Source: Shigella phage EP23. Taken from it: a stretch of 44,077 nt of DNA. Under the pieces are notes generated by a model. That model searched no databases and was not told where the DNA came from. It worked only from the letters and a program-made list of their open reading frames with translations. This document shows positions 56-44,077 of this stretch, piece by piece. The position numbers were made by a program, and so were the translations under genes. Numbering within the stretch: position 1 is the first letter of the stretch; every line of letters starts with the position of its first letter. Where the stretch lies: the sequence record JN984867; one strand, 5' to 3'.

Positions 56-628
56 ATGAACAAAAGGGCTTATATCATGGCAGAAATCAAAGTTAAGGGC
101 CGACGCGCCAAACTGGACGGACGAGTAGCAGTAACCCCGCGCCGTAAACCAGGCGAGCAAACCGAGCACACCAATCTTGGACCTGAAATCGAGTACGGAA
201 AGCGCCGTAAAGGCGGCAAATGCGGACGCCCTACTGACTACAGATCCGTTTACTGCGATCAGCTTCGCCGCTATTTTGCCGACGCCGACGCCTGGCAGGT
301 CAACTACTCCGATAAAGGCGCTGCGCAAGTAATCCCCCGCAACAAAATGCCAACCTTCGGCCGATTTGCCGCTGAAATCGGCGTGGGCGTAGCTTGCCTG
401 TATCGCTGGGCGCGTGCGCATGAGGAGTTTGCCGAGGCGATGGCGGACGCAATGGAGTTGCAGAAAACCTTCCTGATGGAAGCTGGCGGCGTGACCATCG
501 CGGCGGGCTTCGCTACATTCCTGCTTAAAGCAAACCACGGCGTCCGCGACGATGTACCGCTGGATGACGACGAAGATGATAACGGCGACGTAGTTGTCGA
601 ACCTTCCGGCAAAGGCCAGGGTGAATAA
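56..628 (+). CDS. terminase small subunit (putative, HTH-containing)
   Basis: 190-aa ORF directly upstream of and overlapping (ATGA-type junction at 628) the large terminase; basic N-terminus, acidic C-terminal tail; position-based call. Confidence 0.55.
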   Translation: MNKRAYIMAEIKVKGRRAKLDGRVAVTPRRKPGEQTEHTNLGPEIEYGKRRKGGKCGRPTDYRSVYCDQLRRYFADADAWQVNYSDKGAAQVIPRNKMPTFGRFAAEIGVGVACLYRWARAHEEFAEAMADAMELQKTFLMEAGGVTIAAGFATFLLKANHGVRDDVPLDDDEDDNGDVVVEPSGKGQGE

Positions 629-5079: not shown

Positions 5080-5844
5080 TCAGCGCGGAATACCGCAAAT
5101 CTCGTTGAGAGTTTTCACATCCAGCGCCACCGCCGTGGATTTTGGCTTGTCCGGGTATGGTATGAATTGCTCAACTTCAGGCCATGCCTTAATCAGCTTC
5201 TTGTCAGTATTGTGCAGGTCCAGCACACCGGTAACGGTGAGTTTGAACGCATCATACTTCGCGCGTAACTCGCGACGGGCTTTGTCGTTGCGGTCCAGGC
5301 GTTTACAGAAATCATGATCTGCCGGGTAGTCTACGCGACCGCGTGGAAGATATATCGGCAGCGCTTTCCCGTCCTCGTCCACTTCGCACACTGACGCGAG
5401 CATAACCGTCTCGAACCCCGGAACGATATCGCCGAGATCAGGCGCGAGCATATTCATATATTTCTCTTCCCAGTACCCGCGATGTACGCGGTATTGGCGA
5501 CCGTCACCGCTCAAGGACAAGGTGCGAACATTTCCGCCTGCGTTGATTTCGAAAGTGGCGTCGTAAACGCTGCCGATACCCTTCGGACGGTCGGTGTTAT
5601 AACTATACGTCGCCTTGTTGGTGTATACGCTGACGCCGTACATCTGCGACTGGTCATCGAGGATTAACAGGATATGCTCGCGTAGCGCGGCGAATGTGCG
5701 AATGCCGTCCGGCATACAGTCCAGCGTGATTGCGTACGCCAGATCGCGGGAGTCCATCATGATTGATTTGGCTTCGGTTGCGATTTCGTGGTCGCGCAGG
5801 ATGTTAGCCAGGATCTGATTTTTAATGTCTTTCGTCAGTCTCAT
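5080..5844 (-). CDS. hypothetical protein (reverse-strand accessory gene inside structural module)
   Basis: 254 aa ORF, GAGGA RBS before ATG at 5844; no motif recognised. Confidence 0.5.
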   Translation of the reverse strand: MRLTKDIKNQILANILRDHEIATEAKSIMMDSRDLAYAITLDCMPDGIRTFAALREHILLILDDQSQMYGVSVYTNKATYSYNTDRPKGIGSVYDATFEINAGGNVRTLSLSGDGRQYRVHRGYWEEKYMNMLAPDLGDIVPGFETVMLASVCEVDEDGKALPIYLPRGRVDYPADHDFCKRLDRNDKARRELRAKYDAFKLTVTGVLDLHNTDKKLIKAWPEVEQFIPYPDKPKSTAVALDVKTLNEICGIPR

Positions 5845-5925
5845 TTTTGTGTCCTCGTTGTTGGGGCTTTCGCCCCGTTTGGTTTAGTTGAATTTGATGC
5901 CGCCACCAACAGGCCGCTTTGTTCG

Positions 5926-6438
5926 CTACAAACGCATCGGCATGATAACAAGGAAGGCCCCACCTTTGAACGACACACGTGTCGCCTTGTCGACCCCCCG
6001 GAATTCCAGTTTTAAGCTATCAAACTTACGGTCGAACAATTTAGCAATTTTGAAGGCGTCGGATAGGTATGCCCCATTAAACCCGATAGCCTCCACTTTA
6101 GCGCTGGCGAAAGACGAAACTCTACGCCAGTCTGGGAATCGTCCGTCTATGTTCTCTACGGGCAGGGTCCCTATTAATACGTCTTTACTATCAAAGAACG
6201 CTGCGGAGGTGTCGTCAATGTTGCAGTATTCGAATTTAGCAGGTAAGCGGCCTTTAATTGATACTATTTTACTTTCACCTTCGGGAACAACCGCGGACCC
6301 TAAGAACAAACGATGTCCGTCGGAGGCCACAATGAAGCCTTTCTCGTCGAAAAATACACCATTCAGATAGTATCGCACGTCATTAGTTGCGGCGCACATC
6401 ATAGCGGCTTTAAGATCGGCATAGTTAACTTTAATCAT
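5926..6438 (-). CDS. beta sliding clamp (DnaN)-like protein, half-size (about 170 aa)
   Basis: Motifs VRYYLNGVFF, IVASDGHRLF, DGRFPDWRRV, IGFNGAYLSDAF and C-terminal VIMPMRL parallel DnaN domain II-III landmarks (from memory of E. coli DnaN); start taken as second ATG after GAGGA RBS (track ORF extends to 6492). Confidence 0.6.
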   Translation of the reverse strand: MIKVNYADLKAAMMCAATNDVRYYLNGVFFDEKGFIVASDGHRLFLGSAVVPEGESKIVSIKGRLPAKFEYCNIDDTSAAFFDSKDVLIGTLPVENIDGRFPDWRRVSSFASAKVEAIGFNGAYLSDAFKIAKLFDRKFDSLKLEFRGVDKATRVSFKGGAFLVIMPMRL

Positions 6439-6462
6439 TATCATTTCCTCGTTGTTGGTGTG

Positions 6463-6532
6463 CAACCAATATAATGCAACCAACATCTGCAATGCAAGCG
6501 AATTTTGCGATTATTTTTATCGCTGATAATAT
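6463..6532. promoter_or_regulatory. divergent promoter region: leftward TTGCAT-N18-TATATT (clamp-like gene) and rightward TTGCGA-N16-TAATAT (scaffold gene), with two TGCAACCAA motifs
   Basis: Hexamers read directly; shares an extended block (TGCAAG-C/T-GAATTTTGC) with the 24.9 kb promoter. Confidence 0.5.
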
Positions 6533-6586
6533 TAAGGCGTGAAGTCAAGCGGGTGGCCCGCTTTGCCACAATCCCAGGGGGATAGC

Positions 6587-7291
6587 ATGAAACTTACTAA
6601 AGCAGAATATGACGCGTTGCCAGAAGGCATGAAGGCTTTATTTGTTGCCGATGGCGATGGGTATAAATCCACGTTCATGACCGCCGAAGAAGTACAGGCG
6701 GAGATCAAGGGTCTGAAAGACAACAACGCGAAGCTGGTTAGCGAGAAGAAAGCAGAAGCCGAACGTCGCGCCGAAGCCGAGCGCCTTGCGAAAGAGAAAG
6801 AGGAAGCCGCCGCGCGCAAAAATGGTGACCTCGAAGCAATCGACAAATCCTGGAAAGATAAGTTCGCAAAACATGAAGCGGACACATCGGGGAAAATCGA
6901 AGCCTACCGCAAGCAGATCCACGACCTGACCATCGGCAGCGCCGCCAAAGATCTGGCGTCGAAGCTGTTCGGTAAGAACGCCGGAATCATGCAACGTCAC
7001 GTTATGGACCGCCTGACGCTGGAAGACGGCGAAGACGGCAGCTTGAAAGTGCGGGTCTTGCAGGATGGCAAACCGTCCGCGCTGACTATGGAAGAGCTTG
7101 AAAAAGAGTTCCGTAATAACGCCGATTTTGCATCCGTCCTGGCTGGCACGCCAGCAGGCGGCGCTCCTAGCAAACCGACGCAGGTTGTCGAAGATGTGAA
7201 GTCAAAAATCACTATGGGCCACAGCTTCGGTATCACTGACTTAACGAAACAGGCAGGGGATATCATCGCTAAAATGGGCGACGACGAGTAA
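6587..7291 (+). CDS. scaffolding-like protein (coiled-coil, charged)
   Basis: ATG at 6587 after GGGGGA RBS; K/E/A-rich helical sequence immediately upstream of major capsid gene. Confidence 0.5.
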   Translation: MKLTKAEYDALPEGMKALFVADGDGYKSTFMTAEEVQAEIKGLKDNNAKLVSEKKAEAERRAEAERLAKEKEEAAARKNGDLEAIDKSWKDKFAKHEADTSGKIEAYRKQIHDLTIGSAAKDLASKLFGKNAGIMQRHVMDRLTLEDGEDGSLKVRVLQDGKPSALTMEELEKEFRNNADFASVLAGTPAGGAPSKPTQVVEDVKSKITMGHSFGITDLTKQAGDIIAKMGDDE

Positions 7292-7388
7292 GCAGATCGC
7301 CCGCGAAAGCGGGCGATTTTGCGAGCGCGTAAATCTAAGGTAACATTAACGACACTGAGCGAATGCTCACAACTCAAAGGATTCTAAT

Positions 7389-8483
7389 ATGTCTTTAACA
7401 GTGTTCCAGCGTAAACTCGTCACCGCGGTTACGCAAATGATTCCCGATAACCTGAACGTGTTCAACGCTGCCGCTAACGGTGCTGTTGTTCTCGGCACGG
7501 GTGAAGTTCTGAAGGACGTTGTAGAAAAAATGTCCGTAGGCTTGATCGCCAACCTCGTTACCGACCGTAACGCCTACGCCCCTGTCGGTACTCCGGCGAC
7601 CGCAAAAGTGCTGGCGCGTATGCTGACCAACTCGGTTAACCTGTCCGCGAAAGTGGGTCCGGTGGCAATCACTAAGGCCATGATGGCTAAGATCGAAACC
7701 AACGTTAATAGCGTTGCGGCTGAGATTGCGGCACAGGCTACTCAAGCGATTATGCTGCATTACCTCAAAGCGGGTATCGGTGCGGGCAAAGCCGCTATTG
7801 AAAGCAACGCAGCGGCAAACTACACCCAACCTGCGCGCGTTGACGGCGTTGGCGGTCGTACCTTCCCGACCCTGGCAGACTTCCCGCTGGCGGCTTCTAA
7901 GTTCGGCGATCAGGCTGCTTTGATTAAGTCCTGGTTTATGGACGGCGTTACCTGGGCAAACTTCATCGCTTACCAGGCGCTTCCATCTGCCGAGCAGGTA
8001 TTCGCGATCGGCGATCTGCAGGTAATGGGCGATGGCCTGGGCCGCCGTTTCATTATCTCCGATGCCGCTGCCGATGCAATGGGCGCGGGTAAAATGCTGG
8101 GTCTGGTCCCTGGCGCGGTTGCAGTTACCACCAACGGCCTAGATATGCTGGCGCAGGAAAAAGGCGGTAACGAGAACATTGAGCGCTGGTGGCAGGGCGA
8201 GTTCGACTTCAACGTGGCTGTTAAAGGCTATCGTCTGAAGGCGTCCGCTCGTACTCCGGTCGAAGGCGTTCGCTCGTTCAAGCTGTCCGATATCACCGAT
8301 AAGGCCAACTGGGAACTGGACCAGGGCCAGGTAGACAACGCACCGGCAACCGTGCAGGATGTTGGCAGCGATAGCGATACCAAAGGCCGCCGCCGTACGC
8401 AGACAGCGCAGGCAGTGCCTACCCGTAACATCAAGGAAACCGCGGGCGTACTGGTTACGCTGACTGCTACCACCGCGTCGTAA
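7389..8483 (+). CDS. major capsid protein
   Basis: 364 aa, A/G/V-rich, follows scaffold-like gene and is followed by a strong terminator; HK97-fold capsid size range. Confidence 0.75.
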   Translation: MSLTVFQRKLVTAVTQMIPDNLNVFNAAANGAVVLGTGEVLKDVVEKMSVGLIANLVTDRNAYAPVGTPATAKVLARMLTNSVNLSAKVGPVAITKAMMAKIETNVNSVAAEIAAQATQAIMLHYLKAGIGAGKAAIESNAAANYTQPARVDGVGGRTFPTLADFPLAASKFGDQAALIKSWFMDGVTWANFIAYQALPSAEQVFAIGDLQVMGDGLGRRFIISDAAADAMGAGKMLGLVPGAVAVTTNGLDMLAQEKGGNENIERWWQGEFDFNVAVKGYRLKASARTPVEGVRSFKLSDITDKANWELDQGQVDNAPATVQDVGSDSDTKGRRRTQTAQAVPTRNIKETAGVLVTLTATTAS

Positions 8484-24904: not shown

Positions 24905-24947
24905 ACTATAGTGCAACCAACCTATTGGTTGCAAGTGAATTTTGCAA
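24905..24947 (-). promoter_or_regulatory. leftward promoter TTGCAA-N18-TATAGT overlapping perfect inverted repeat TGCAACCAA-ccta-TTGGTTGCA (24912-24933)
   Basis: Hexamers and palindrome read directly on minus strand. Confidence 0.55.
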
Positions 24948-25392
24948 CGTTTATTGCGTAAATTTTCGGGACCAAATCACCACACGCCCGACGAATTGCC
25001 GCGATGTTCTTCGGGCAGTCCTCAATGATGACCAGTTCCGACACGTCCGCATAGCAGACCATTTTGAACACGGCGCACGCCTTAAACTCAGGCGGCGGGG
25101 TGTCGTCCAGCATGTGGCGCATAAACAACCGGCCTACTGGGAAGACCTCCAATTGCTCGGCGGTGGTGTCCCAACATTCTCGCTGCCGGTTTGTCAGATA
25201 CGCGATCTCGAAGCCTTGCTCTTTATACATGCGCAGCAGCGGCAGCATATCCATGTTCAGGTCTTCGCGGACGTGCGCTTTGTGCCACTTCGCCCAAAAG
25301 GTGGATTTCGTTTTTATCCCCGGCACCAGGTCGGCGCGCGCATCGCTTGATCCATTAATAACGCCATCCAGATCACAAATCAGTAATTTCAT
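24922..25392 (-). CDS. HAD-superfamily phosphatase (putative nucleotidase / 3'-phosphatase)
   Basis: N-terminal LLICDLDGVI matches HAD motif I (DxDG); 156 aa; GAGGA RBS. Confidence 0.55.
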   Translation of the reverse strand: MKLLICDLDGVINGSSDARADLVPGIKTKSTFWAKWHKAHVREDLNMDMLPLLRMYKEQGFEIAYLTNRQRECWDTTAEQLEVFPVGRLFMRHMLDDTPPPEFKACAVFKMVCYADVSELVIIEDCPKNIAAIRRACGDLVPKIYAINVAKFTCNQ

Positions 25393-25613
25393 TTCAATTC
25401 CTCAATCAAATTTGCACGAACAGTACGGGCGGAAAACGTGTCACACACAAGATGACAGCGGGCAGTCATTACAAGCCAGCCAGTAAGGTCCATGCCCAGG
25501 AGGTGTTCTGGCCGTGACACGCGACGCACTTTGTTCTCCCTCGGGTTGATTTGGTAGCGTTTAACAATTTCGTCCACGACGCGCATACTGCGATCAACGA
25601 TTAAGATATTCAC
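25389..25613 (-). CDS. hypothetical small protein
   Basis: 74 aa ORF overlapping neighbours by a few nt; apparent GTG start. Confidence 0.3.
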   Translation of the reverse strand: MNILIVDRSMRVVDEIVKRYQINPRENKVRRVSRPEHLLGMDLTGWLVMTARCHLVCDTFSARTVRANLIEELK

Positions 25614-28831: not shown

Positions 28832-29110
28832 CTATGCGACCAATTCAGCAACCAATAAATCGCAGTCGGATATGTTGTCGATAACGCGAACGTCAGCACC
28901 GCGGCGGGCCATTCGCTCATGTTCACGTACCTGGTGCGGCTTCGGTTTTCCTCCGGGGCGCTTCACTTCGACGAACACTATTTTGCCGTTGATGATAATA
29001 ATCAGGTCGGGCGCACCTGCGCGCCCCTCCCATGCCAGTTTTCGGCAGAATCCGCCAACATCTTTCACCCGTCTCATCAGGTGGCTTTGAATCTTGCCTT
29101 CTGGTGTCAT
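28832..29110 (-). CDS. VRR-NUC domain nuclease (PD-(D/E)XK)
   Basis: GAPDLIIIINGKIVFVEVKRPGGK core; start ATG 29110 overlapping polymerase stop. Confidence 0.55.
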   Translation of the reverse strand: MTPEGKIQSHLMRRVKDVGGFCRKLAWEGRAGAPDLIIIINGKIVFVEVKRPGGKPKPHQVREHERMARRGADVRVIDNISDCDLLVAELVA

Positions 29111-32100
29111 TACTTGCGGTAGCGATACATGCAATCGCCCTCTGCGGCAAGTGGGAAGCCTTTCGCCCAAACCGGCAGGTCGCACATCAGCGCGCACAAC
29201 TCCTCGGTTGTGTAGTCGTCGGTATCCGGCACTTCGGTTATCAGCTCATCGTGTACGGAAAGTACGATCTCATACCCCGCAGCTTCAACGCCAGGCATGG
29301 ACCATGCGAGAATATCGCGGCACAACGCCTGTACGATGTTTTCCGTCAGTTTGCCGCCGTAGGTATACTGGAATCCCCACTGGCGCGTCGTCTGATTCTC
29401 GCCCTGATATTTAATGCGTGTGCTGGTGCGCTTCTTGCCGGTGTCTTCGTCGATCTCGGTCGTGACAGACAGCGCGATGCCAGGGTAGCTCATGATGCGC
29501 CCTGACGGCAACTCAATTTTAAGCCACCACCCCGCCGCGTTCGGGTCGTCGCGCTCCTCGTCGAAGGTCGGGTCATGCTTCGCCTTCGTTCGAACAATTT
29601 TGAGCGCTTTCCTGCCATCCGGGCGAACGTTCGCGCCAGCCCAGTACGCTTTGCCCGGATTGCGGATCGCGCAGAGCACCGCGTCCTCCAGTTCGGCCCA
29701 AAAGGCTACCGTCATCGGGTGAGACTCACGCCACATACGTTTGATCGCGTCACACGTCAGCCACACGTTTTTCGGCAGTATGTAAGTTGGGCGCTCGTCT
29801 TTCTTGCCAGGCTTCGGCGGGCGCTTCTCCTCGTTAATGCGAGCGTACTCATAACCCCGCTTCGCCGCCGCCCAAATGTGATCCGGGAATGTGCCCTTCA
29901 TGACGTCAGCCATAGTGTAAAGGTCGAGGCCCAGGTTTTTAGCGAACTGCAAGAACGCCGCGACGCCGCCACCATAGCCCAGGCCAAGCTCGCAGTTATG
30001 CGCCACCAGAAAACCAGACTTAGACGCAATAAGGAACCGGTTTCCGTCTTCCACATCAATCAGGTCGTAAACCGGCTCGCAATAGGTTAACTTCCCGTTC
30101 CAGTTCAGCAATGCGGGTAAGGGCTTCATCGTACTTTCTCTGAAGCTCGGGCACGCTGCGCCGGTTACGGCAGTTTTCCGAACGGCTGACAAACCGAAGG
30201 TTTCCAGGCTCATAGTCGCCGTCTGTATCGATCCTGTCCATTTCGAAGTCTGGCTTATCCCAGCCGTCCAGCGTTTGAACGTAGAGAAGAAACGACCTTT
30301 TATCTCTCTTCCATTCGTCACATACGGCAATCCCACGACCGCCGTAGTTTTTATACCCTTTGGCGCGGGGGTTTGTCGTTCGTGATATTGCCGCTGACAG
30401 CCGGTTGAGTAGCCGCGTTCTGTGCGCATCGTCTGGCATTGCGTCATCGTAGCAAAAATACTGTTTACGATACCGCTTTGTCGCTTCAATTGCGCAGAGG
30501 TTGCATTGGGATGTTTTACCCCTTCGGACGTTGTCATACCCGACGCGTCCTGGCATCGCTCCGCAATCACATTGGGCCAGCAGTTGTCTGTGACCCTGTC
30601 GTTTTGGTAATTCGCGCAGGATAACCAGGCGTCCATACCTCTCGCCAGGGCGCGGACCATCGTGCACCTGTCTGAAACGAGTTGCCTTGCCTCCTTCCAT
30701 GAATGCGTCAAGATTTTGTGGTCTTCTGTCATCAAGACCCCGTCCACGTCTATCACTGGTTTCCACCCCATAAGGTGCGCGCCTTTTGTACTCACCCATT
30801 TTTCGCCGTTCCATACTTTATCCGTTGATGTTACGGCCATAATATCCTTGAACCCGCCATTGGTCAATACTTGGGTATGGCGGTGCAAGCAAGCCTTACC
30901 GATCTGGCGTAAGTCCTTGCGGTTGGCTTTAATGTAATCCGGGTCAAGGCCGAACATCTTACCGGCAGTCTCGCAATAGATATCGCGACCGGCCTTAAAG
31001 ACCATTAACGCTGTTTTCTCGCCAGCGATCCAGGCAAGTCCACGCCCTTCCACATTGGAGTAGTCCGCTACGACAAACTTCTTGCCCTTCGCCGGAATAA
31101 TGCACCCGCGAACGGTCGAGGCCGTTAGCTTCGATATGTCATACGCCCAGTGTGCGGTCCCGCGTAACAGGGAGTTGATGCCGTTGGTGAGCATGTGCGA
31201 CCGGACCCAAAACGAGACGTCGCTTTCACCCTCGCGGCGTTTAATCTTCCCTTCGTGGTCGTCGCTGTACTCGCCACGCGCCAGGTTTTGAGGCTGGAAG
31301 CCTTTGCCCGCCCAGCGCAGCGTGCGCTTTGCGCCGCCATACTGAAGACACCCACGGCGGCGACCATCTGCGGATAAGCCGTTAACTAGCGGATTGTACT
31401 TAGTCGATGCCGTTGATGACGCCCCGAGGCGCATTTCGATAAGCGCTTTGCCTTCGTCGGGGAAGTCCGGGTCTTCAAGCAGGTCGTTAAGCGTGGATTT
31501 CTGCGCGTTGTGGATCGTGAACGCCGGGGCGATATCACGCAGGATTGGCAGGAAGTCATTGCCTGTCAGCTTACCGCCAAATCGCTCCCAGGCTTCTTCC
31601 TTCAATTCTTCCTTATGCGCCTGCACCGCTTTGATCGCGGCGTTCGCCAGGTCAACGTCGACGTAGAAGCCGCGGTCGTTAATCAACTGGTCGATGAGCA
31701 GGATTTCATCTTCCTTAGGCGAGTTTCCCCAGTCCGGTATGCGCCAGTAGACTTCACGCATTGCGATAATATCCAGCGCGGCATAGCGCAGAAATTTGGC
31801 CCATTCTTCCGGGTGAGTCTCGCGAGTGTAGCGGCGGATTTTGTAGGTCTTAGGGGTAGGCTTACAGAATCGGTTAATCAGCGCCTTGCCTGCCTTATCC
31901 TTCGCGTGCTCTGCGTCAACGCCCAGAACCTGGCACTGCATATCGAGGCTACCGGGCAGCGCGTGGCGAAAGGCCATAATCATAGTGTCTTCGATCTGGC
32001 TTACCGGCAGGTCAATACCCCACTTCTCGCGGATAACCAGGCGGTCAAACAGGAGGCCGTTAGCCATCACTATTTTAGCCTTCTTGCGGGATACCCGGCG

Positions 32101-32298
32101 GAGCGCCTTGCGCAGTTCACGCGGCATTGTGGGGGATTCAGTGGCATCCCATGTCTGCACGCGGCCCTCGTCTATGGCGTAGGTGCAAATCATAATCTCT
32201 GTGGTTGGGTGCTCCGCGTAGGCGTACGCCCCAACTTTCTTCAGGTCCACCCCGCTAAATGTCTCGGTGTCGAGAAACAGGCGTTCGAAGTCTTTCAT
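29110..32298 (-). CDS. family A DNA polymerase with 3'-5' exonuclease domain, interrupted by an intein in motif B
   Basis: Exo motif FLDTETFSG, motif A ADYSNVEGR, motif C LSVHDEL; motif B split as RQIGKA / intein / CELGLGYGG. Confidence 0.9.
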   Translation of the reverse strand: MKDFERLFLDTETFSGVDLKKVGAYAYAEHPTTEIMICTYAIDEGRVQTWDATESPTMPRELRKALRRVSRKKAKIVMANGLLFDRLVIREKWGIDLPVSQIEDTMIMAFRHALPGSLDMQCQVLGVDAEHAKDKAGKALINRFCKPTPKTYKIRRYTRETHPEEWAKFLRYAALDIIAMREVYWRIPDWGNSPKEDEILLIDQLINDRGFYVDVDLANAAIKAVQAHKEELKEEAWERFGGKLTGNDFLPILRDIAPAFTIHNAQKSTLNDLLEDPDFPDEGKALIEMRLGASSTASTKYNPLVNGLSADGRRRGCLQYGGAKRTLRWAGKGFQPQNLARGEYSDDHEGKIKRREGESDVSFWVRSHMLTNGINSLLRGTAHWAYDISKLTASTVRGCIIPAKGKKFVVADYSNVEGRGLAWIAGEKTALMVFKAGRDIYCETAGKMFGLDPDYIKANRKDLRQIGKACLHRHTQVLTNGGFKDIMAVTSTDKVWNGEKWVSTKGAHLMGWKPVIDVDGVLMTEDHKILTHSWKEARQLVSDRCTMVRALARGMDAWLSCANYQNDRVTDNCWPNVIAERCQDASGMTTSEGVKHPNATSAQLKRQSGIVNSIFATMTQCQTMRTERGYSTGCQRQYHERQTPAPKGIKTTAVVGLPYVTNGREIKGRFFSTFKRWTAGISQTSKWTGSIQTATMSLETFGLSAVRKTAVTGAACPSFRESTMKPLPALLNWNGKLTYCEPVYDLIDVEDGNRFLIASKSGFLVAHNCELGLGYGGGVAAFLQFAKNLGLDLYTMADVMKGTFPDHIWAAAKRGYEYARINEEKRPPKPGKKDERPTYILPKNVWLTCDAIKRMWRESHPMTVAFWAELEDAVLCAIRNPGKAYWAGANVRPDGRKALKIVRTKAKHDPTFDEERDDPNAAGWWLKIELPSGRIMSYPGIALSVTTEIDEDTGKKRTSTRIKYQGENQTTRQWGFQYTYGGKLTENIVQALCRDILAWSMPGVEAAGYEIVLSVHDELITEVPDTDDYTTEELCALMCDLPVWAKGFPLAAEGDCMYRYRK
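29995..30891 (-). mobile_element. intein (299 aa) in DNA polymerase motif B
   Basis: Insert starts with Cys (codon 30889-30891), ends ...LVAHN followed by Cys (+1); Hint-like blocks CLHRHTQVLTNGG, TEDHKIL, VYDLIDVEDGNRFLIASKSGFLVAHN; excision restores R-x3-K-x3-LG-x2-YG. Confidence 0.8.
30056..30814 (-). CDS. HNH homing endonuclease encoded in an alternative frame inside the intein
   Basis: YGRLVIL...CDCG...RGKTSQCNLC and GYKNYGGRGIAVCDEW...DRIDTDGDYEPGNLRFVSRSENCRNR match phage HNH/His-Me finger proteins; frame differs from polymerase (30814 mod 3 = 1 vs 32298 mod 3 = 0); true start may be an internal Met (~30700). Confidence 0.7.
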   Translation of the reverse strand: MERRKMGEYKRRAPYGVETSDRRGRGLDDRRPQNLDAFMEGGKATRFRQVHDGPRPGERYGRLVILRELPKRQGHRQLLAQCDCGAMPGRVGYDNVRRGKTSQCNLCAIEATKRYRKQYFCYDDAMPDDAHRTRLLNRLSAAISRTTNPRAKGYKNYGGRGIAVCDEWKRDKRSFLLYVQTLDGWDKPDFEMDRIDTDGDYEPGNLRFVSRSENCRNRRSVPELQRKYDEALTRIAELEREVNLLRAGLRPD

Positions 32299-36480: not shown

Positions 36481-36810
36481 ATGAATATCAACGACGCAAT
36501 CGAAATGCTAACGAAGACTGTCTGCAGTGAGACTAGCCGGTCCTGGGCGTATACCGATGCCGTGGGGGCGGTGCTATTTGAAATCGAACGTCTGCGACTT
36601 ACCGAAAAAGAATTGCGCGCGAAGCTGGAATTACTCAACGGTACGGCAGCCAGCAAGCTGCAAAAGCACAATGAAGAAATGGAAGAATACAAAAAACAGG
36701 TTATCCGTTTGCGCGCCGAGGGAAAATCCTGGGCGATGATCGCTGAGTTGACAGGAATTAATCAGAGCACCGTGCGCTCCTGGGTACGCAATAACAAAAC
36801 TTCGAAGTAA
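36481..36810 (+). CDS. HTH DNA-binding protein (putative transcriptional regulator)
   Basis: C-terminal KSWAMIAELTGINQSTVRSWVRN helix-turn-helix; GGAGA RBS; first rightward gene. Confidence 0.5.
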   Translation: MNINDAIEMLTKTVCSETSRSWAYTDAVGAVLFEIERLRLTEKELRAKLELLNGTAASKLQKHNEEMEEYKKQVIRLRAEGKSWAMIAELTGINQSTVRSWVRNNKTSK

Positions 36811-42446: not shown

Positions 42447-42454
42447 AACAATCA

Positions 42455-42479
42455 AGCCCGGAATTAACCGGGCTTTTTA
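42455..42479 (+). terminator. rho-independent terminator after lysis genes
   Basis: AGCCCGG-aattaa-CCGGGCT hairpin followed by TTTTT. Confidence 0.65.
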
Positions 42480-42483
42480 TTGC

Positions 42484-42513
42484 TTGACTTGCAACCAACA
42501 TAGACTCTATACT
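42484..42513 (+). promoter_or_regulatory. promoter TTGACT-N18-TATACT with TGCAACCAA in spacer
   Basis: Read directly; followed by 26-codon micro-ORF (42543-42623) and gene at 42685. Confidence 0.55.
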
Positions 42514-42684
42514 GCGACCAATCAACGAGAGGAGTAATCAAGATGGCACGTAAAGATATTTGGGTATTAGCGATCTGGACCACCACGGCTTTTATCGACA
42601 TGGTTATTTGCGAATTGATATAGCCCGCCGCCATACGGACCGTGGTATATTGTCCGCGGTCCACTAATCAGGAATTAATTAAAT

Positions 42685-43827
42685 ATGCACCCGCAAACTA
42701 AAATTACCGATGAGCAATTGATCGCAGAAATTCAGGAAGGGACTACAGTTAAAGAGATTGCGAAGAAGTACGGCATCGCACTTCGAAATGTCTATATGCG
42801 CAAAGCCCGCCTGTCTAAAAAGGGGATTGGTCACGGCAATGATGCAGTGATCCGTAAGCGCGTTGCCGATGGTTTTGGGGTTAAGCGCGTATCGGCCCTG
42901 GTGCGCGGCAATGGCGAAGAGGTCATGTCGTGGGTCATCACTGAGCAGGACAAAGAGCGCCAACTCGAAGCTATGCGCGCTGTTGTCGATGGTATGAACA
43001 GCGAAATCACACCGGCAGCGCCAGTAAAAGCCCCGCCAGTCCCAGTCCAGGCACTCGACTTGCTCAACCTGTACACCGTGTCAGACTTTCACCTGGGAAT
43101 GCTGGCATGGGGTGAGGAGACTGGCGAAGACTGGGATATGGCGATTGCTGAAGACCTGTTCTACCGCTGGTTTGTCGAAGCCTTCGCCCGCGCACCGGAC
43201 GCAGGAACTGCCGTTATCAATATCCTCGGGGATATGGCCCACTTTGATAGCCTTGATGCCGTCACACCGGCAAGCGGTCACGTACTGGACGCCGACACAC
43301 GATACCAGAAGTTGGTCCGCTATATGATTCGCATGGTGCGCAACGTGGTAGACCTGGCGCTGCAAAAACACCACAAAGTAAAACTGCTAATCGTCCAGGG
43401 TAATCATGACGAATCTGGTATGATTTGGCTTGCTGAGATGTTCAATACCTTGTATGAGAACGAGCCGCGCGTCGATGTGGACACGTCACCGGACGTCTAC
43501 AAAATGGTGCAGCACGGTAAGACTACGCTATTTTTCCACCACGGGCACAAAGCGCGATTCGATGTTATCGAGCAGGTTATGATCGCTAAATTCAGACAGG
43601 CGTTCGGGGCGAGCGAATACAGCTACGCGCACGTAGGCCATTTGCACCACCAGAAGATTGTTGAATCCCGCAACATGATTGTCGAACAGCACAGGACGCT
43701 CGCAGCGAAAGACGCCTACGCCAGTCGTGGCGGCTGGATGAGCGGTCGCAGCGCAAACGTCATCACCTATAGCGCCAACTACGGAGAAGTAGCGCGCTTA
43801 ACCATTAGCCCGGAAATGTTGAAATGA
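42685..43827 (+). CDS. N-terminal HTH fused to calcineurin-like metallophosphoesterase
   Basis: HTH-like TTVKEIAKKYGIALRNVYMRKARL; phosphoesterase motifs VSDFHLG, ILGDMAHFD, VQGNHDE, FHHGHK, HVGHLHH. Confidence 0.6.
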   Translation: MHPQTKITDEQLIAEIQEGTTVKEIAKKYGIALRNVYMRKARLSKKGIGHGNDAVIRKRVADGFGVKRVSALVRGNGEEVMSWVITEQDKERQLEAMRAVVDGMNSEITPAAPVKAPPVPVQALDLLNLYTVSDFHLGMLAWGEETGEDWDMAIAEDLFYRWFVEAFARAPDAGTAVINILGDMAHFDSLDAVTPASGHVLDADTRYQKLVRYMIRMVRNVVDLALQKHHKVKLLIVQGNHDESGMIWLAEMFNTLYENEPRVDVDTSPDVYKMVQHGKTTLFFHHGHKARFDVIEQVMIAKFRQAFGASEYSYAHVGHLHHQKIVESRNMIVEQHRTLAAKDAYASRGGWMSGRSANVITYSANYGEVARLTISPEMLK

Positions 43828-44036
43828 TCAGACAAGTATTCATGAGCACGCAGGCCGCACGCCTGAAAGAACTACGCAAACAACTGGAAGGATTGCGCCG
43901 ATTCGAACGAACGGCAGCGGCAGTCGGTATGTCGATGGATGAGCGAATCGAGATACTGTCGCAAATACGCTACACAGAGGGCGCTATACGCGAAGTACAA
44001 AGCATGTCAACCCGATACTACGGGCGCGACGTTTAA
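43824..44036 (+). CDS. hypothetical protein
   Basis: 70 aa ORF overlapping previous stop. Confidence 0.4.
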   Translation: MIRQVFMSTQAARLKELRKQLEGLRRFERTAAAVGMSMDERIEILSQIRYTEGAIREVQSMSTRYYGRDV

Positions 44037-44077
44037 ACCGCATAGCCTGCCGATTTGGTGGGCTTTTTTGTGCCTGT

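Follow-up and report, generated by a model that had tools for sequence, protein, structure and literature searches.

Introduction

Protein A1 of phage T5 is a predicted metallophosphatase with a resemblance to double-strand-break-repair nucleases and polymerase proofreading subunits. Degradation of the host chromosome requires A1, and A1 suffices for it; the protein reportedly also interacts with RNA polymerase and lowers transcription from pre-early promoters (bioRxiv 10.64898/2026.04.02.716235). Another phage metallophosphoesterase (MPE), Gp48 of the cluster A mycobacteriophage A10ZJ24, has measured phosphodiesterase activity and is an early, toxic product that disrupts the genomic DNA of the host (PMC12287305). 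Here we describe an MPE gene in the 44,077-nucleotide sequence of Shigella phage EP23 (record JN984867; the whole of this stretch is called the window below). It occupies 42685..43827 on the + strand, an uninterrupted frame of 380 codons, and its 380-aa product joins an N-terminal helix-turn-helix (HTH) to an MPE domain. We think that this product is probably a DNA nuclease. The fuller statement, in which the HTH tethers the nuclease to DNA and host DNA is its target in the cell, draws on analogy with A1 and Gp48, and we make it with considerably less confidence.

Like the EP23 protein, T5 A1 (phrog_1745, 'DNA transfer protein') is a phage MPE without a Rad50 partner, and the motif III context NHDxxxSxWL is common to A1 and the EP23 family. 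A1 acts alongside the DNA-binding protein A2. It differs from the EP23 protein in its length of 556 aa, with a large additional middle region; it is the product of a pre-early gene on the first-step-transfer DNA and also serves in second-step DNA transfer. All five MPE motifs (GDIH, HDxxD, SNHD, HGH, GHTH) are found in the C-terminal half of A1 and of 23 relatives, and the relatives of about 530 aa have an N-terminal HTH (Pfam HTH_23, HTH_38 and HTH_7; resolvase- or transposase-like in PHROG), so that the architecture of HTH, spacer domain and MPE recurs. Gp48 has its motif I at residue 10 and thus, unlike the EP23 protein, no N-terminal HTH domain. Lambda NinI, the lambda protein phosphatase, is encoded by an MPE-superfamily gene at the end of the nin region, and the HTH-MPE gene is equivalently placed in a Pseudomonas fluorescens prophage; the PPP-type phosphatase motifs of NinI (GDxHG, GDxVDRG, GNHE) are not found in the EP23 protein.

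Two observations on A1 itself stand apart from this comparison. T5 A1 (L075, 1706-3376) has a complete MPE motif set and yet no Pfam match. Moreover, five A1 relatives with 44-48% identity (P0343, P0345, P0346, P0373, P0385), on contigs of up to ~150 kb, have an HTH in place of the A1 N-terminus, and the published view of A1 as largely confined to the Demerecviridae may, on these sequences, be too narrow.

An HTH and a complete MPE motif set in one protein

The EP23 protein matches PHROG 704, labelled 'DNA repair exonuclease' and elsewhere 'calcineurin-like phosphoesterase', over its full length (E=2.2e-161; residues 5-380 against profile positions 2-390 of 390). Two Pfam families also match, Metallophos_2 (7.7e-5) and Metallophos (8.5e-4), both under their gathering scores (the two scores are 23.2 and 20.2 bits, where 27 and 21.5 respectively are required). 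When 65 diverse homologues (32-49% identity) were aligned, only 14 of them had a Metallophos match at E<=0.01. PHROG 704 is a divergent MPE branch, and its membership of the superfamily rests on motifs and fold. Five MPE motifs are present in order: DFH (residues 134-136), GDMAH (182-186), GNHD (239-242), HHGH (285-288) and GHLH (318-321). Across the 65 homologues D134, H136, G182, D183, N240, H241, H286, G318 and H321 are invariant, and H186, D188, D242, H285, H288 and H319 nearly so (H186 and H319 in at least 90%). The motif set is complete and is that of the calcineurin-like metallophosphoesterase superfamily. Motif II has the form GDxxH both here and in Mre11, its histidine being at the position of the catalytic His85 of Pyrococcus furiosus Mre11.

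An AlphaFold2 model built from the 65-sequence alignment has a mean pLDDT of 93.3 and a pTM of 0.82, and its chain is continuous. At the N-terminus stands a three-helix HTH of the resolvase/LuxR/sigma-region-4 type (residues 9-45; 42709..42819, + strand). It is followed by a linker of lower model confidence (residues 46-62), by a family-specific connector consisting of a beta-hairpin (64-88) and a long helix (90-106) with conserved G77 and W83 (42874..43002, + strand), and by a Pro/Ala-rich linker. The catalytic domain (residues 126-380; 43060..43824, + strand) has the MPE beta-sandwich fold and extends to the C-terminus with no capping domain. The HTH is tri-helical in fold, resembles sigma region 4 and LuxR domains in fold and profile, and is predicted to bind DNA; several Pfam HTH families match residues 10-48 weakly, under gathering scores. 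A search of the PDB with the single sequence returned spurious repeat-protein matches alone, and one with the family profile returned weak HTH matches (GerE, 0.025) and SbcD at 0.4. For the connector unit (residues 64-106) no matching solved structure was found.

A preliminary description of this stretch, made from the letters alone, had reported an HTH and a complete MPE motif set in one gene, and had made this depend on an MPE profile signal and on the two halves being a single gene. On all these points it holds. The motifs are intact, with nine residues invariant in 65 homologues; an MPE profile signal is present, strongly in PHROG 704 and under gathering scores in Pfam; and separate genes are ruled out by the continuous model and by the 1,680 of 2,072 homologous phage records in which a single stretch accounts for at least 80% of the protein.

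The nearest solved folds are those of the DP1, SbcD and Mre11 nucleases, at 14-16% sequence identity. In Mre11 and SbcD a capping domain lies C-terminal to the core, whereas the EP23 protein stops at the MPE core; it also lacks an OB fold, and has the N-terminal HTH instead. Bas84, a near-identical phage, maps onto the window over its full length, and none of its annotated genes encodes a Rad50/SbcC ATPase. DNA is the most probable substrate because an intact Mre11/DP1-like MPE domain is combined with a tethered HTH, with neither partner nor capping domain. We propose that the protein would act as a metal-dependent phosphodiesterase on DNA, that is, a nuclease, and that the HTH, on its flexible linker, would keep the enzyme on duplex DNA and thereby substitute for the Rad50/SbcC partner and the capping domain of Mre11/SbcD enzymes.

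Nucleases are not the only MPEs near in fold: LpxH (13.9), MJ0936 (13.5), YfcE (12.6) and Rv0805 (12.2) are among the many fold-close MPEs that act on small molecules. The protein could thus be a small-molecule phosphodiesterase or a protein phosphatase, acting on a nucleotide signal or pool or in the manner of lambda NinI, with the HTH used for autoregulation or localisation alone. Such an enzyme would suit the slot just before the late genes in lambdoid prophages, where lambda has NinI, and also the moron-like islands of Kagunavirus, in which the gene is beside an Imm-like superinfection-immunity gene. Searches of PADLOC and NCBIfam gave no match for the HTH-MPE protein, which speaks against this explanation. 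Moreover, the HTH is conserved over thousands of diverse phages, and autoregulation is hard to accept as the reason because promoter contexts differ completely between phage groups. We consider a phosphatase of this kind unlikely.

A large family at a recurring genomic position

The HTH-MPE gene was at first taken for an unusual fusion, a view that its relatives do not bear out. Homologues of PHROG 704 are found in 2,072 of 50,697 phage records, and a metagenome-scale collection yields 3,737 clusters at 90% identity; at 50% identity there are 4,649 clusters, 1,130 of them with E below 1e-30. The closest proteins, 98% identical, are in GenBank as 'DNA repair exonuclease', 'metallophosphoesterase' or 'winged helix-turn-helix domain-containing protein', and the HTH is fused to the MPE in most of the family. 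Judged by sequence, the gene is a catalogued and typical PHROG 704 member with nothing substantive to set it apart from the family. Identity to the EP23 protein is 95-99% in Dhillonvirus, 73-76% in Kagunavirus and Jerseyvirus and 42-47% in Drexlerviridae (T1-like phages), and further members occur in Rhizobium phages, Vibrio phages and roseophages. The family is also on record in the Guernseyvirinae and in many other siphophages. Within the Drexlerviridae the gene is carried by 508 of 522 phages (PMC13164509). The family label 'DNA repair exonuclease' is an annotation by similarity, and our literature search found neither an experimental study of any PHROG 704 member nor temporal expression data for the family.

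The surroundings of the gene vary. In the Drexlerviridae it is directly upstream of holin, endolysin and spanin, and the EP23 gene likewise adjoins the lysis cassette. In Kagunavirus it lies in a small divergent moron-like island within the tail genes, behind the Imm-like gene, and in one Vibrio phage it comes after an OB-fold protein. A scan of genome collections with a 9-sequence alignment as query found the gene also in bacterial chromosomes, in prophages, for example in complete chromosomes of Dyella, Sphingomonas and Luteibacter. The prophage of Pseudomonas fluorescens HK44 has the order O-like, P-like, NinB, NinG, HTH-MPE, holin, TerS, TerL, and in Luteimonas the gene is between a replication/methylase region and an endolysin. 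In lambda, the slot between the nin genes and the late genes is held by NinI and Q. The gene orders thus compared place the recurring position at the border of replication or nin genes with lysis or packaging genes, with no constant neighbour. In a prophage of Pseudomonas sp. P818 (L077), a 121-aa open reading frame (ORF) at 7122-7487 (...LLMQWGIWVR...) directly follows the HTH-MPE gene; it looks like a Q-type antiterminator and may be one, in which case the MPE gene would hold the exact NinI position of a lambdoid prophage.

This position bears on a second explanation, in which the enzyme would be a recombination or DNA-end-processing nuclease working on the phage's own DNA, for example cutting back or opening its ends and hairpins for recombination-dependent replication or the formation of concatemers, like Mre11/SbcD without Rad50. 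NinB/Orf and NinG/Rap, which precede the gene in the Pseudomonas prophage, have recombination functions; the nearest folds, Mre11, SbcD and DP1, and the database name 'DNA repair exonuclease' point the same way, and the family occurs in temperate and virulent phages both. However, the phage already encodes a PD-(D/E)XK exonuclease (DUF2800), a Gp2.5-like annealing protein and a VRR-NUC nuclease, a Rad50/SbcC-like gene and a capping domain are both absent, and in most phages the gene is outside the replication/recombination module. To us such a role seems doubtful, although it is the alternative to a host-directed nuclease that we take most seriously.

The transcription unit and its predicted promoters

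For the last 1.8 kb of the window there were 155 matching phage records, with nucleotide identities of 80-95%; nearly all belong to Escherichia phages in the HK578-like siphophage genus Dhillonvirus, and phage PC2 is the closest (95.1%). Since the annotated gene order of Bas84 maps across the entire window, the window is, on this comparison, a complete Dhillonvirus coliphage genome of ~44 kb that begins at the small terminase. Of the 68 related loci that were retrieved (L-numbers below), 15 Dhillonvirus genomes were used to compare the region upstream of the HTH-MPE gene.

The lysis cassette (holins, endolysin, orf55) ends in an intrinsic terminator at 42454..42475 (+ strand), with an 8-bp stem containing 6 G-C pairs, a 6-nt loop and a T-rich tail; it is present in every Dhillonvirus compared (n=15), with a conserved stem and a variable loop. 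Behind it is a sigma-70-like promoter, P1, TTGACT-N18-TATACT (42484..42513, + strand), which agrees with the consensus at 10 of 12 positions, its -35 being at 42484-42489 and its -10, after an 18-nt spacer, at 42508-42513. The octamer GCAACCAA is within the spacer (42491..42498, + strand), and a one-mismatch variant, GCGACCAA, stands directly 3' of the -10 (42514..42521, + strand). By itself the P1 match is not beyond chance, as the genome has 3 sites with at least 10 of 12 positions, where random first-order-Markov sequences have 4.6 on average, and a local 4-kb scan gave 5 promoter-like sites where 3.2 +/- 1.7 were expected. P1 is credible because of its position directly after the terminator and its conservation in relatives.

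Downstream of P1 is a hydrophobic micro-ORF of 26 codons, MARKDIWVLAIWTTTAFIDMVICELI (42543..42623, + strand), with an ATG start and GAGAGGAG 8 nt upstream. It is found in 10 of the 15 Dhillonviruses (the window, L001, L003-L008, L013 and L014), is frame-disrupted in L011 and is absent from L009, L010, L012 and L015. Where present, it retains its frame and the hydrophobic core WVLAIWTTAAFIGMVIC. Public annotations of the spacer between the lysis terminator and the HTH-MPE gene are mutually inconsistent; the distribution of variable sites over codon positions (6/2/10, with mostly conservative changes, in a small sample) favours the 26-codon frame over two alternative ORFs annotated there. No PHROG matched the micro-ORF, and its product is probably, from its sequence, a small membrane peptide encoded by an accessory gene. 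The EP23 copy has a unique G19D change, placing Asp19 amid the hydrophobic segment where all 9 other copies examined have Gly.

Both elements come and go among the relatives. P1 is present, with a variable -10, in L004, L005, L011, L014 and L015, the last of which lacks the micro-ORF; in L006 and L013 a different sequence precedes the micro-ORF, and L007 and L008 have an additional ORF 3' of it. In L009, L010 and L012 the terminator runs directly into the gene-proximal region, and P1 and the micro-ORF are both missing. We infer from this pattern that P1 and the micro-ORF form a real but optional accessory cassette, inserted upstream of the HTH-MPE gene.

Closer to the gene, 34 nt upstream of its ATG, is an extended -10 element, TGGTATATT (P2; 42643..42651, + strand), with no recognisable -35. 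TG(G/A)TATATT is invariant at this site in 15 of 15 Dhillonviruses, while the flanking sequence is variable or replaced, and TGNTATA[AT]T occurs only once in the genome, counting both strands. P2 would thus be the gene's own promoter, and because it is invariant whereas P1 and the micro-ORF are missing in some sister phages, the HTH-MPE gene appears independent of P1. The preliminary description had the terminator, P1 with the motif in its spacer, the micro-ORF and the 380-codon ORF in their correct places; its statement that P1 drives the micro-ORF and then the MPE gene stands for the P1 site and not for the dependence of the gene on it, as the cassette is optional and the invariant P2 had been overlooked. 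A hairpin that overlaps P2 (42637-42662) fell short of significance (z=-1.48) and is not preserved in L009, L010 and L012, and Rfam gave no match in the leader, so that a regulatory RNA in the leader was dropped as a candidate.

The gene is followed by orf70 (43824..44036, + strand; 70 codons; phrog_20931, of unknown function), whose start overlaps the MPE stop codon (ATGA), and then by an intrinsic terminator at 44044..44064 (+ strand). Bounded by two predicted terminators, the HTH-MPE gene has, by its sequence setting, a transcription unit of its own. This is the final unit before the genome wraps round to TerS and TerL, TerS (window 56-628) being reached across the genome ends; in phage PC2 the order is MPE, orf70, TerS, TerL. 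No match to orf70 was found in L007, L009, L010 and L012, where TerS is ~200 nt nearer. A conserved partner encoded just 3' of the HTH-MPE gene was considered and dropped, since the small downstream ORFs are unrelated between phage groups and orf70 is optional. In our model, host RNA polymerase would transcribe this insulated unit, always from the gene-proximal extended -10 promoter and, in EP23, also from P1, which would have arrived with the micro-ORF cassette.

A repeated octamer and its candidate regulator

The octamer in the P1 spacer is frequent in this genome: GCAACCAA has 17 copies against 1.7 expected, a number reached by 0 of 100 shuffles, and GC[AG]ACCAA has 23 occurrences in the window. 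The copies, at 6462, 6476, 22006, 24913/24925, 26579, 26596, 28848, 33255, 33271, 36283, 39117, 39397, 39488, 39519, 40073 and 42491, are mostly paired, 12-31 nt apart, and are found within or next to promoter-like sequences that belong to early, late and accessory units; some make a partial palindrome, TTGGTGTGCAACCAA. At the early leftward sites of the replication operon (33255/33271 and 36283) the motif is in the spacer after TTGAC(C/T) and is followed by a -10, the same architecture as in P1. Other copies are at the head genes (6462/6476), at the tail-fibre gene (22006) and in the rightward region. The two at the head genes lie upstream of the scaffold gene in an unusually long non-coding stretch of ~740 nt (5845-6586).

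Could the HTH-MPE protein be mainly a transcription regulator, that is, an early/late switch or a shut-off factor that binds phage promoters, possibly at GCAACCAA, or RNA polymerase? Its HTH resembles sigma region 4 and LuxR domains, several phage groups have its gene where early and late genes meet, as lambda has Q, and GCAACCAA is at promoters of late and early units and of the gene's own unit; T5 A1, moreover, is reported to interact with RNA polymerase and to dampen pre-early promoters. On the other side, the invariant catalytic residues imply selection on enzymatic function. The comparison of genomes is also unfavourable: Dhillonviruses have 4-10 copies of GCAACCAA per 10 kb, whereas ~50 Kagunavirus-, Jerseyvirus- and other loci with MPEs 40-76% identical have 0-1, those like Kagunavirus and Jerseyvirus 0-0.9, and those Dhillonviruses that lack P1 have no GCAACCAA upstream of the gene. 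The recognition helix, LRNVYMRKARLSKKG, is strictly conserved within Dhillonvirus and differs at 2-3 positions in Jersey-like phages (IRNVQIRKAKLAKKG); across motif-bearing and motif-poor groups it is similar (RNVYMRKARLSKKG vs RNVQIRKAKLAKKG), and the N-terminal 132 residues are 50% identical between Dhillonvirus and Kagunavirus. With Kagunavirus and Jerseyvirus proteins 73-76% identical, a similar recognition helix and next to no motif in those phages, the HTH of the MPE is unsupported as the GCAACCAA binder.

A stronger candidate is the 109-aa product of the first gene of the rightward operon (36481-36810, + strand), which has a C-terminal HTH with matches above the Pfam cut-offs (HTH_23, 2.5e-7; Sigma70_r4_2, 2e-6) and is annotated as 'transposase' in Bas84. 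These matches recommend it, ahead of the MPE, as a candidate site-specific regulator, which may be the one that acts at the GCAACCAA sites. GCAACCAA itself is probably, from its distribution, a Dhillonvirus-specific operator of some phage regulator, and is a matter separate from the HTH-MPE protein. A mainly regulatory HTH-MPE protein thus seems to us very unlikely. A link between the HTH and the motif finds no support in comparative genomics, and of the two roles that the preliminary description offered, regulator or DNA-end-processing enzyme, the second agrees with the DP1, SbcD and Mre11 folds and the first, as a pure regulator, conflicts with the invariant catalytic residues.

Other features of the genome

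Three further octamers, ACGGCAAC, ACGGCAGC and CAACGGCA, have 20-24 copies in the whole window against ~1.6-1.9 expected from base composition, and are similarly enriched in Kagunavirus-like loci (L016, L021, L069); codon or repeat effects may be the cause, or else a skewed motif. The DNA polymerase ORF (29110-32298) has a 299-aa in-frame insertion (window 29995-30891, - strand) that starts at Cys (CLHRHT...) and ends in ...LVAHN directly before Cys (CELGLGYGG), at a point where the Bas84 polymerase is uninterrupted (RQIGKA followed by CELGLGYGG). These boundaries are of the intein type, but the insertion has no Pfam match. A lone leftward gene in the head module (window 5080-5844, - strand) encodes an Nmad5 protein (nucleotide-modification-associated domain 5, PF18757, 2.2e-58) and adjoins the long non-coding stretch with the two GCAACCAA copies.

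The 156-aa product of window 24922-25392 (- strand) is called 'polynucleotide kinase' in relatives. Pfam gives just a HAD-type acid phosphatase, under the cut-off, and no kinase domain; from its sequence the product looks like a phosphatase-only protein. An RNA-repair or end-healing role of the HTH-MPE protein together with this gene was therefore dropped, since the gene matches just the HAD phosphatase and no phosphoesterase step is missing. A phosphatase described in the literature was checked and is not the same gene as the HTH-MPE gene; Ksap1 is most likely the small ORF at ~25392-25577, between the annotated polynucleotide kinase gene and the methyltransferase. The calcineurin-like phosphoesterase of the Metis preprint is a bacterial defence protein and irrelevant to the HTH-MPE gene.

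Discussion

The structural comparisons make a DNA nuclease the probable identity of the HTH-MPE protein. As for its cellular role, we propose that, early in infection, it would attack non-phage DNA such as the host chromosome, as T5 A1 and Gp48 do. We favour degradation of host or foreign DNA because it has the best experimental analogy and because the gene has predicted sigma-70-type promoters of its own; that the gene is core and persistent across phage families also supports it. DNA as the substrate, the activity of the promoters, the timing of expression and the role in the cell are all things that we infer, and the complete proposal of an HTH-tethered DNA nuclease directed at host DNA is tentative, more apt to fail than to stand.

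Several points weigh against it. In the literature that we searched, no PHROG 704 protein has been put to a genetic or biochemical test. Homology of T5 A1 to this family could not be demonstrated, the hhalign probability being 30.5% over 55 columns around motif III (19-30% over the profile-profile comparisons made); A1 and its relatives match phrog_1745 alone among MPE families, and the EP23 protein does not match phrog_1745. Given this weak profile-profile match and the separate PHROGs, we take A1 as a functional analogy alone and not, on present comparisons, as a family member. The prophage copies at the end of a nin-like region, after NinB/NinG and before holin and TerS, would be no less consistent with recombination or an accessory function than with destruction of the host, and in EP23 the gene has lysis genes on one side and packaging genes on the other, away from any obvious early genes. 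Nor does the proposal explain what would protect phage DNA from the enzyme. For the classical T1 'gene 2.5', implicated in host DNA degradation, the literature gave no mapping onto the HTH-MPE gene.

A more specific version of the proposed host-directed nuclease, speculative and argued from analogy, is that the PHROG 704 protein could be the functional equivalent, in one chain, of A1 and A2 of T5: an HTH-guided, partner-less nuclease that would destroy the host chromosome and perhaps affect host transcription through its sigma-region-4-like domain.

For annotators, our analysis brings a correction: the upstream spacer appears to be an optional promoter and small-peptide cassette, and the gene to have its own conserved extended -10. 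The HTH-MPE gene as such is ordinary, being catalogued, annotated and near-identical in many sequenced phages. Several large phage families, with therapeutic and model coliphages as well as phages of Klebsiella and Salmonella among their members, have it in their core, and the total exceeds 2,000 genomes. If the protein is indeed a nuclease against host DNA, a basic step of the infection cycle of these phages would be explained, with relevance to how bacterial defences sense or resist them. If it should further prove to be the counterpart of A1/A2, the host-DNA-degradation function of T1-like, Jersey-like and HK578-like siphophages would be assigned to one conserved gene, and HTH-MPE host-takeover nucleases would be of repeated or very old shared origin across phage families.

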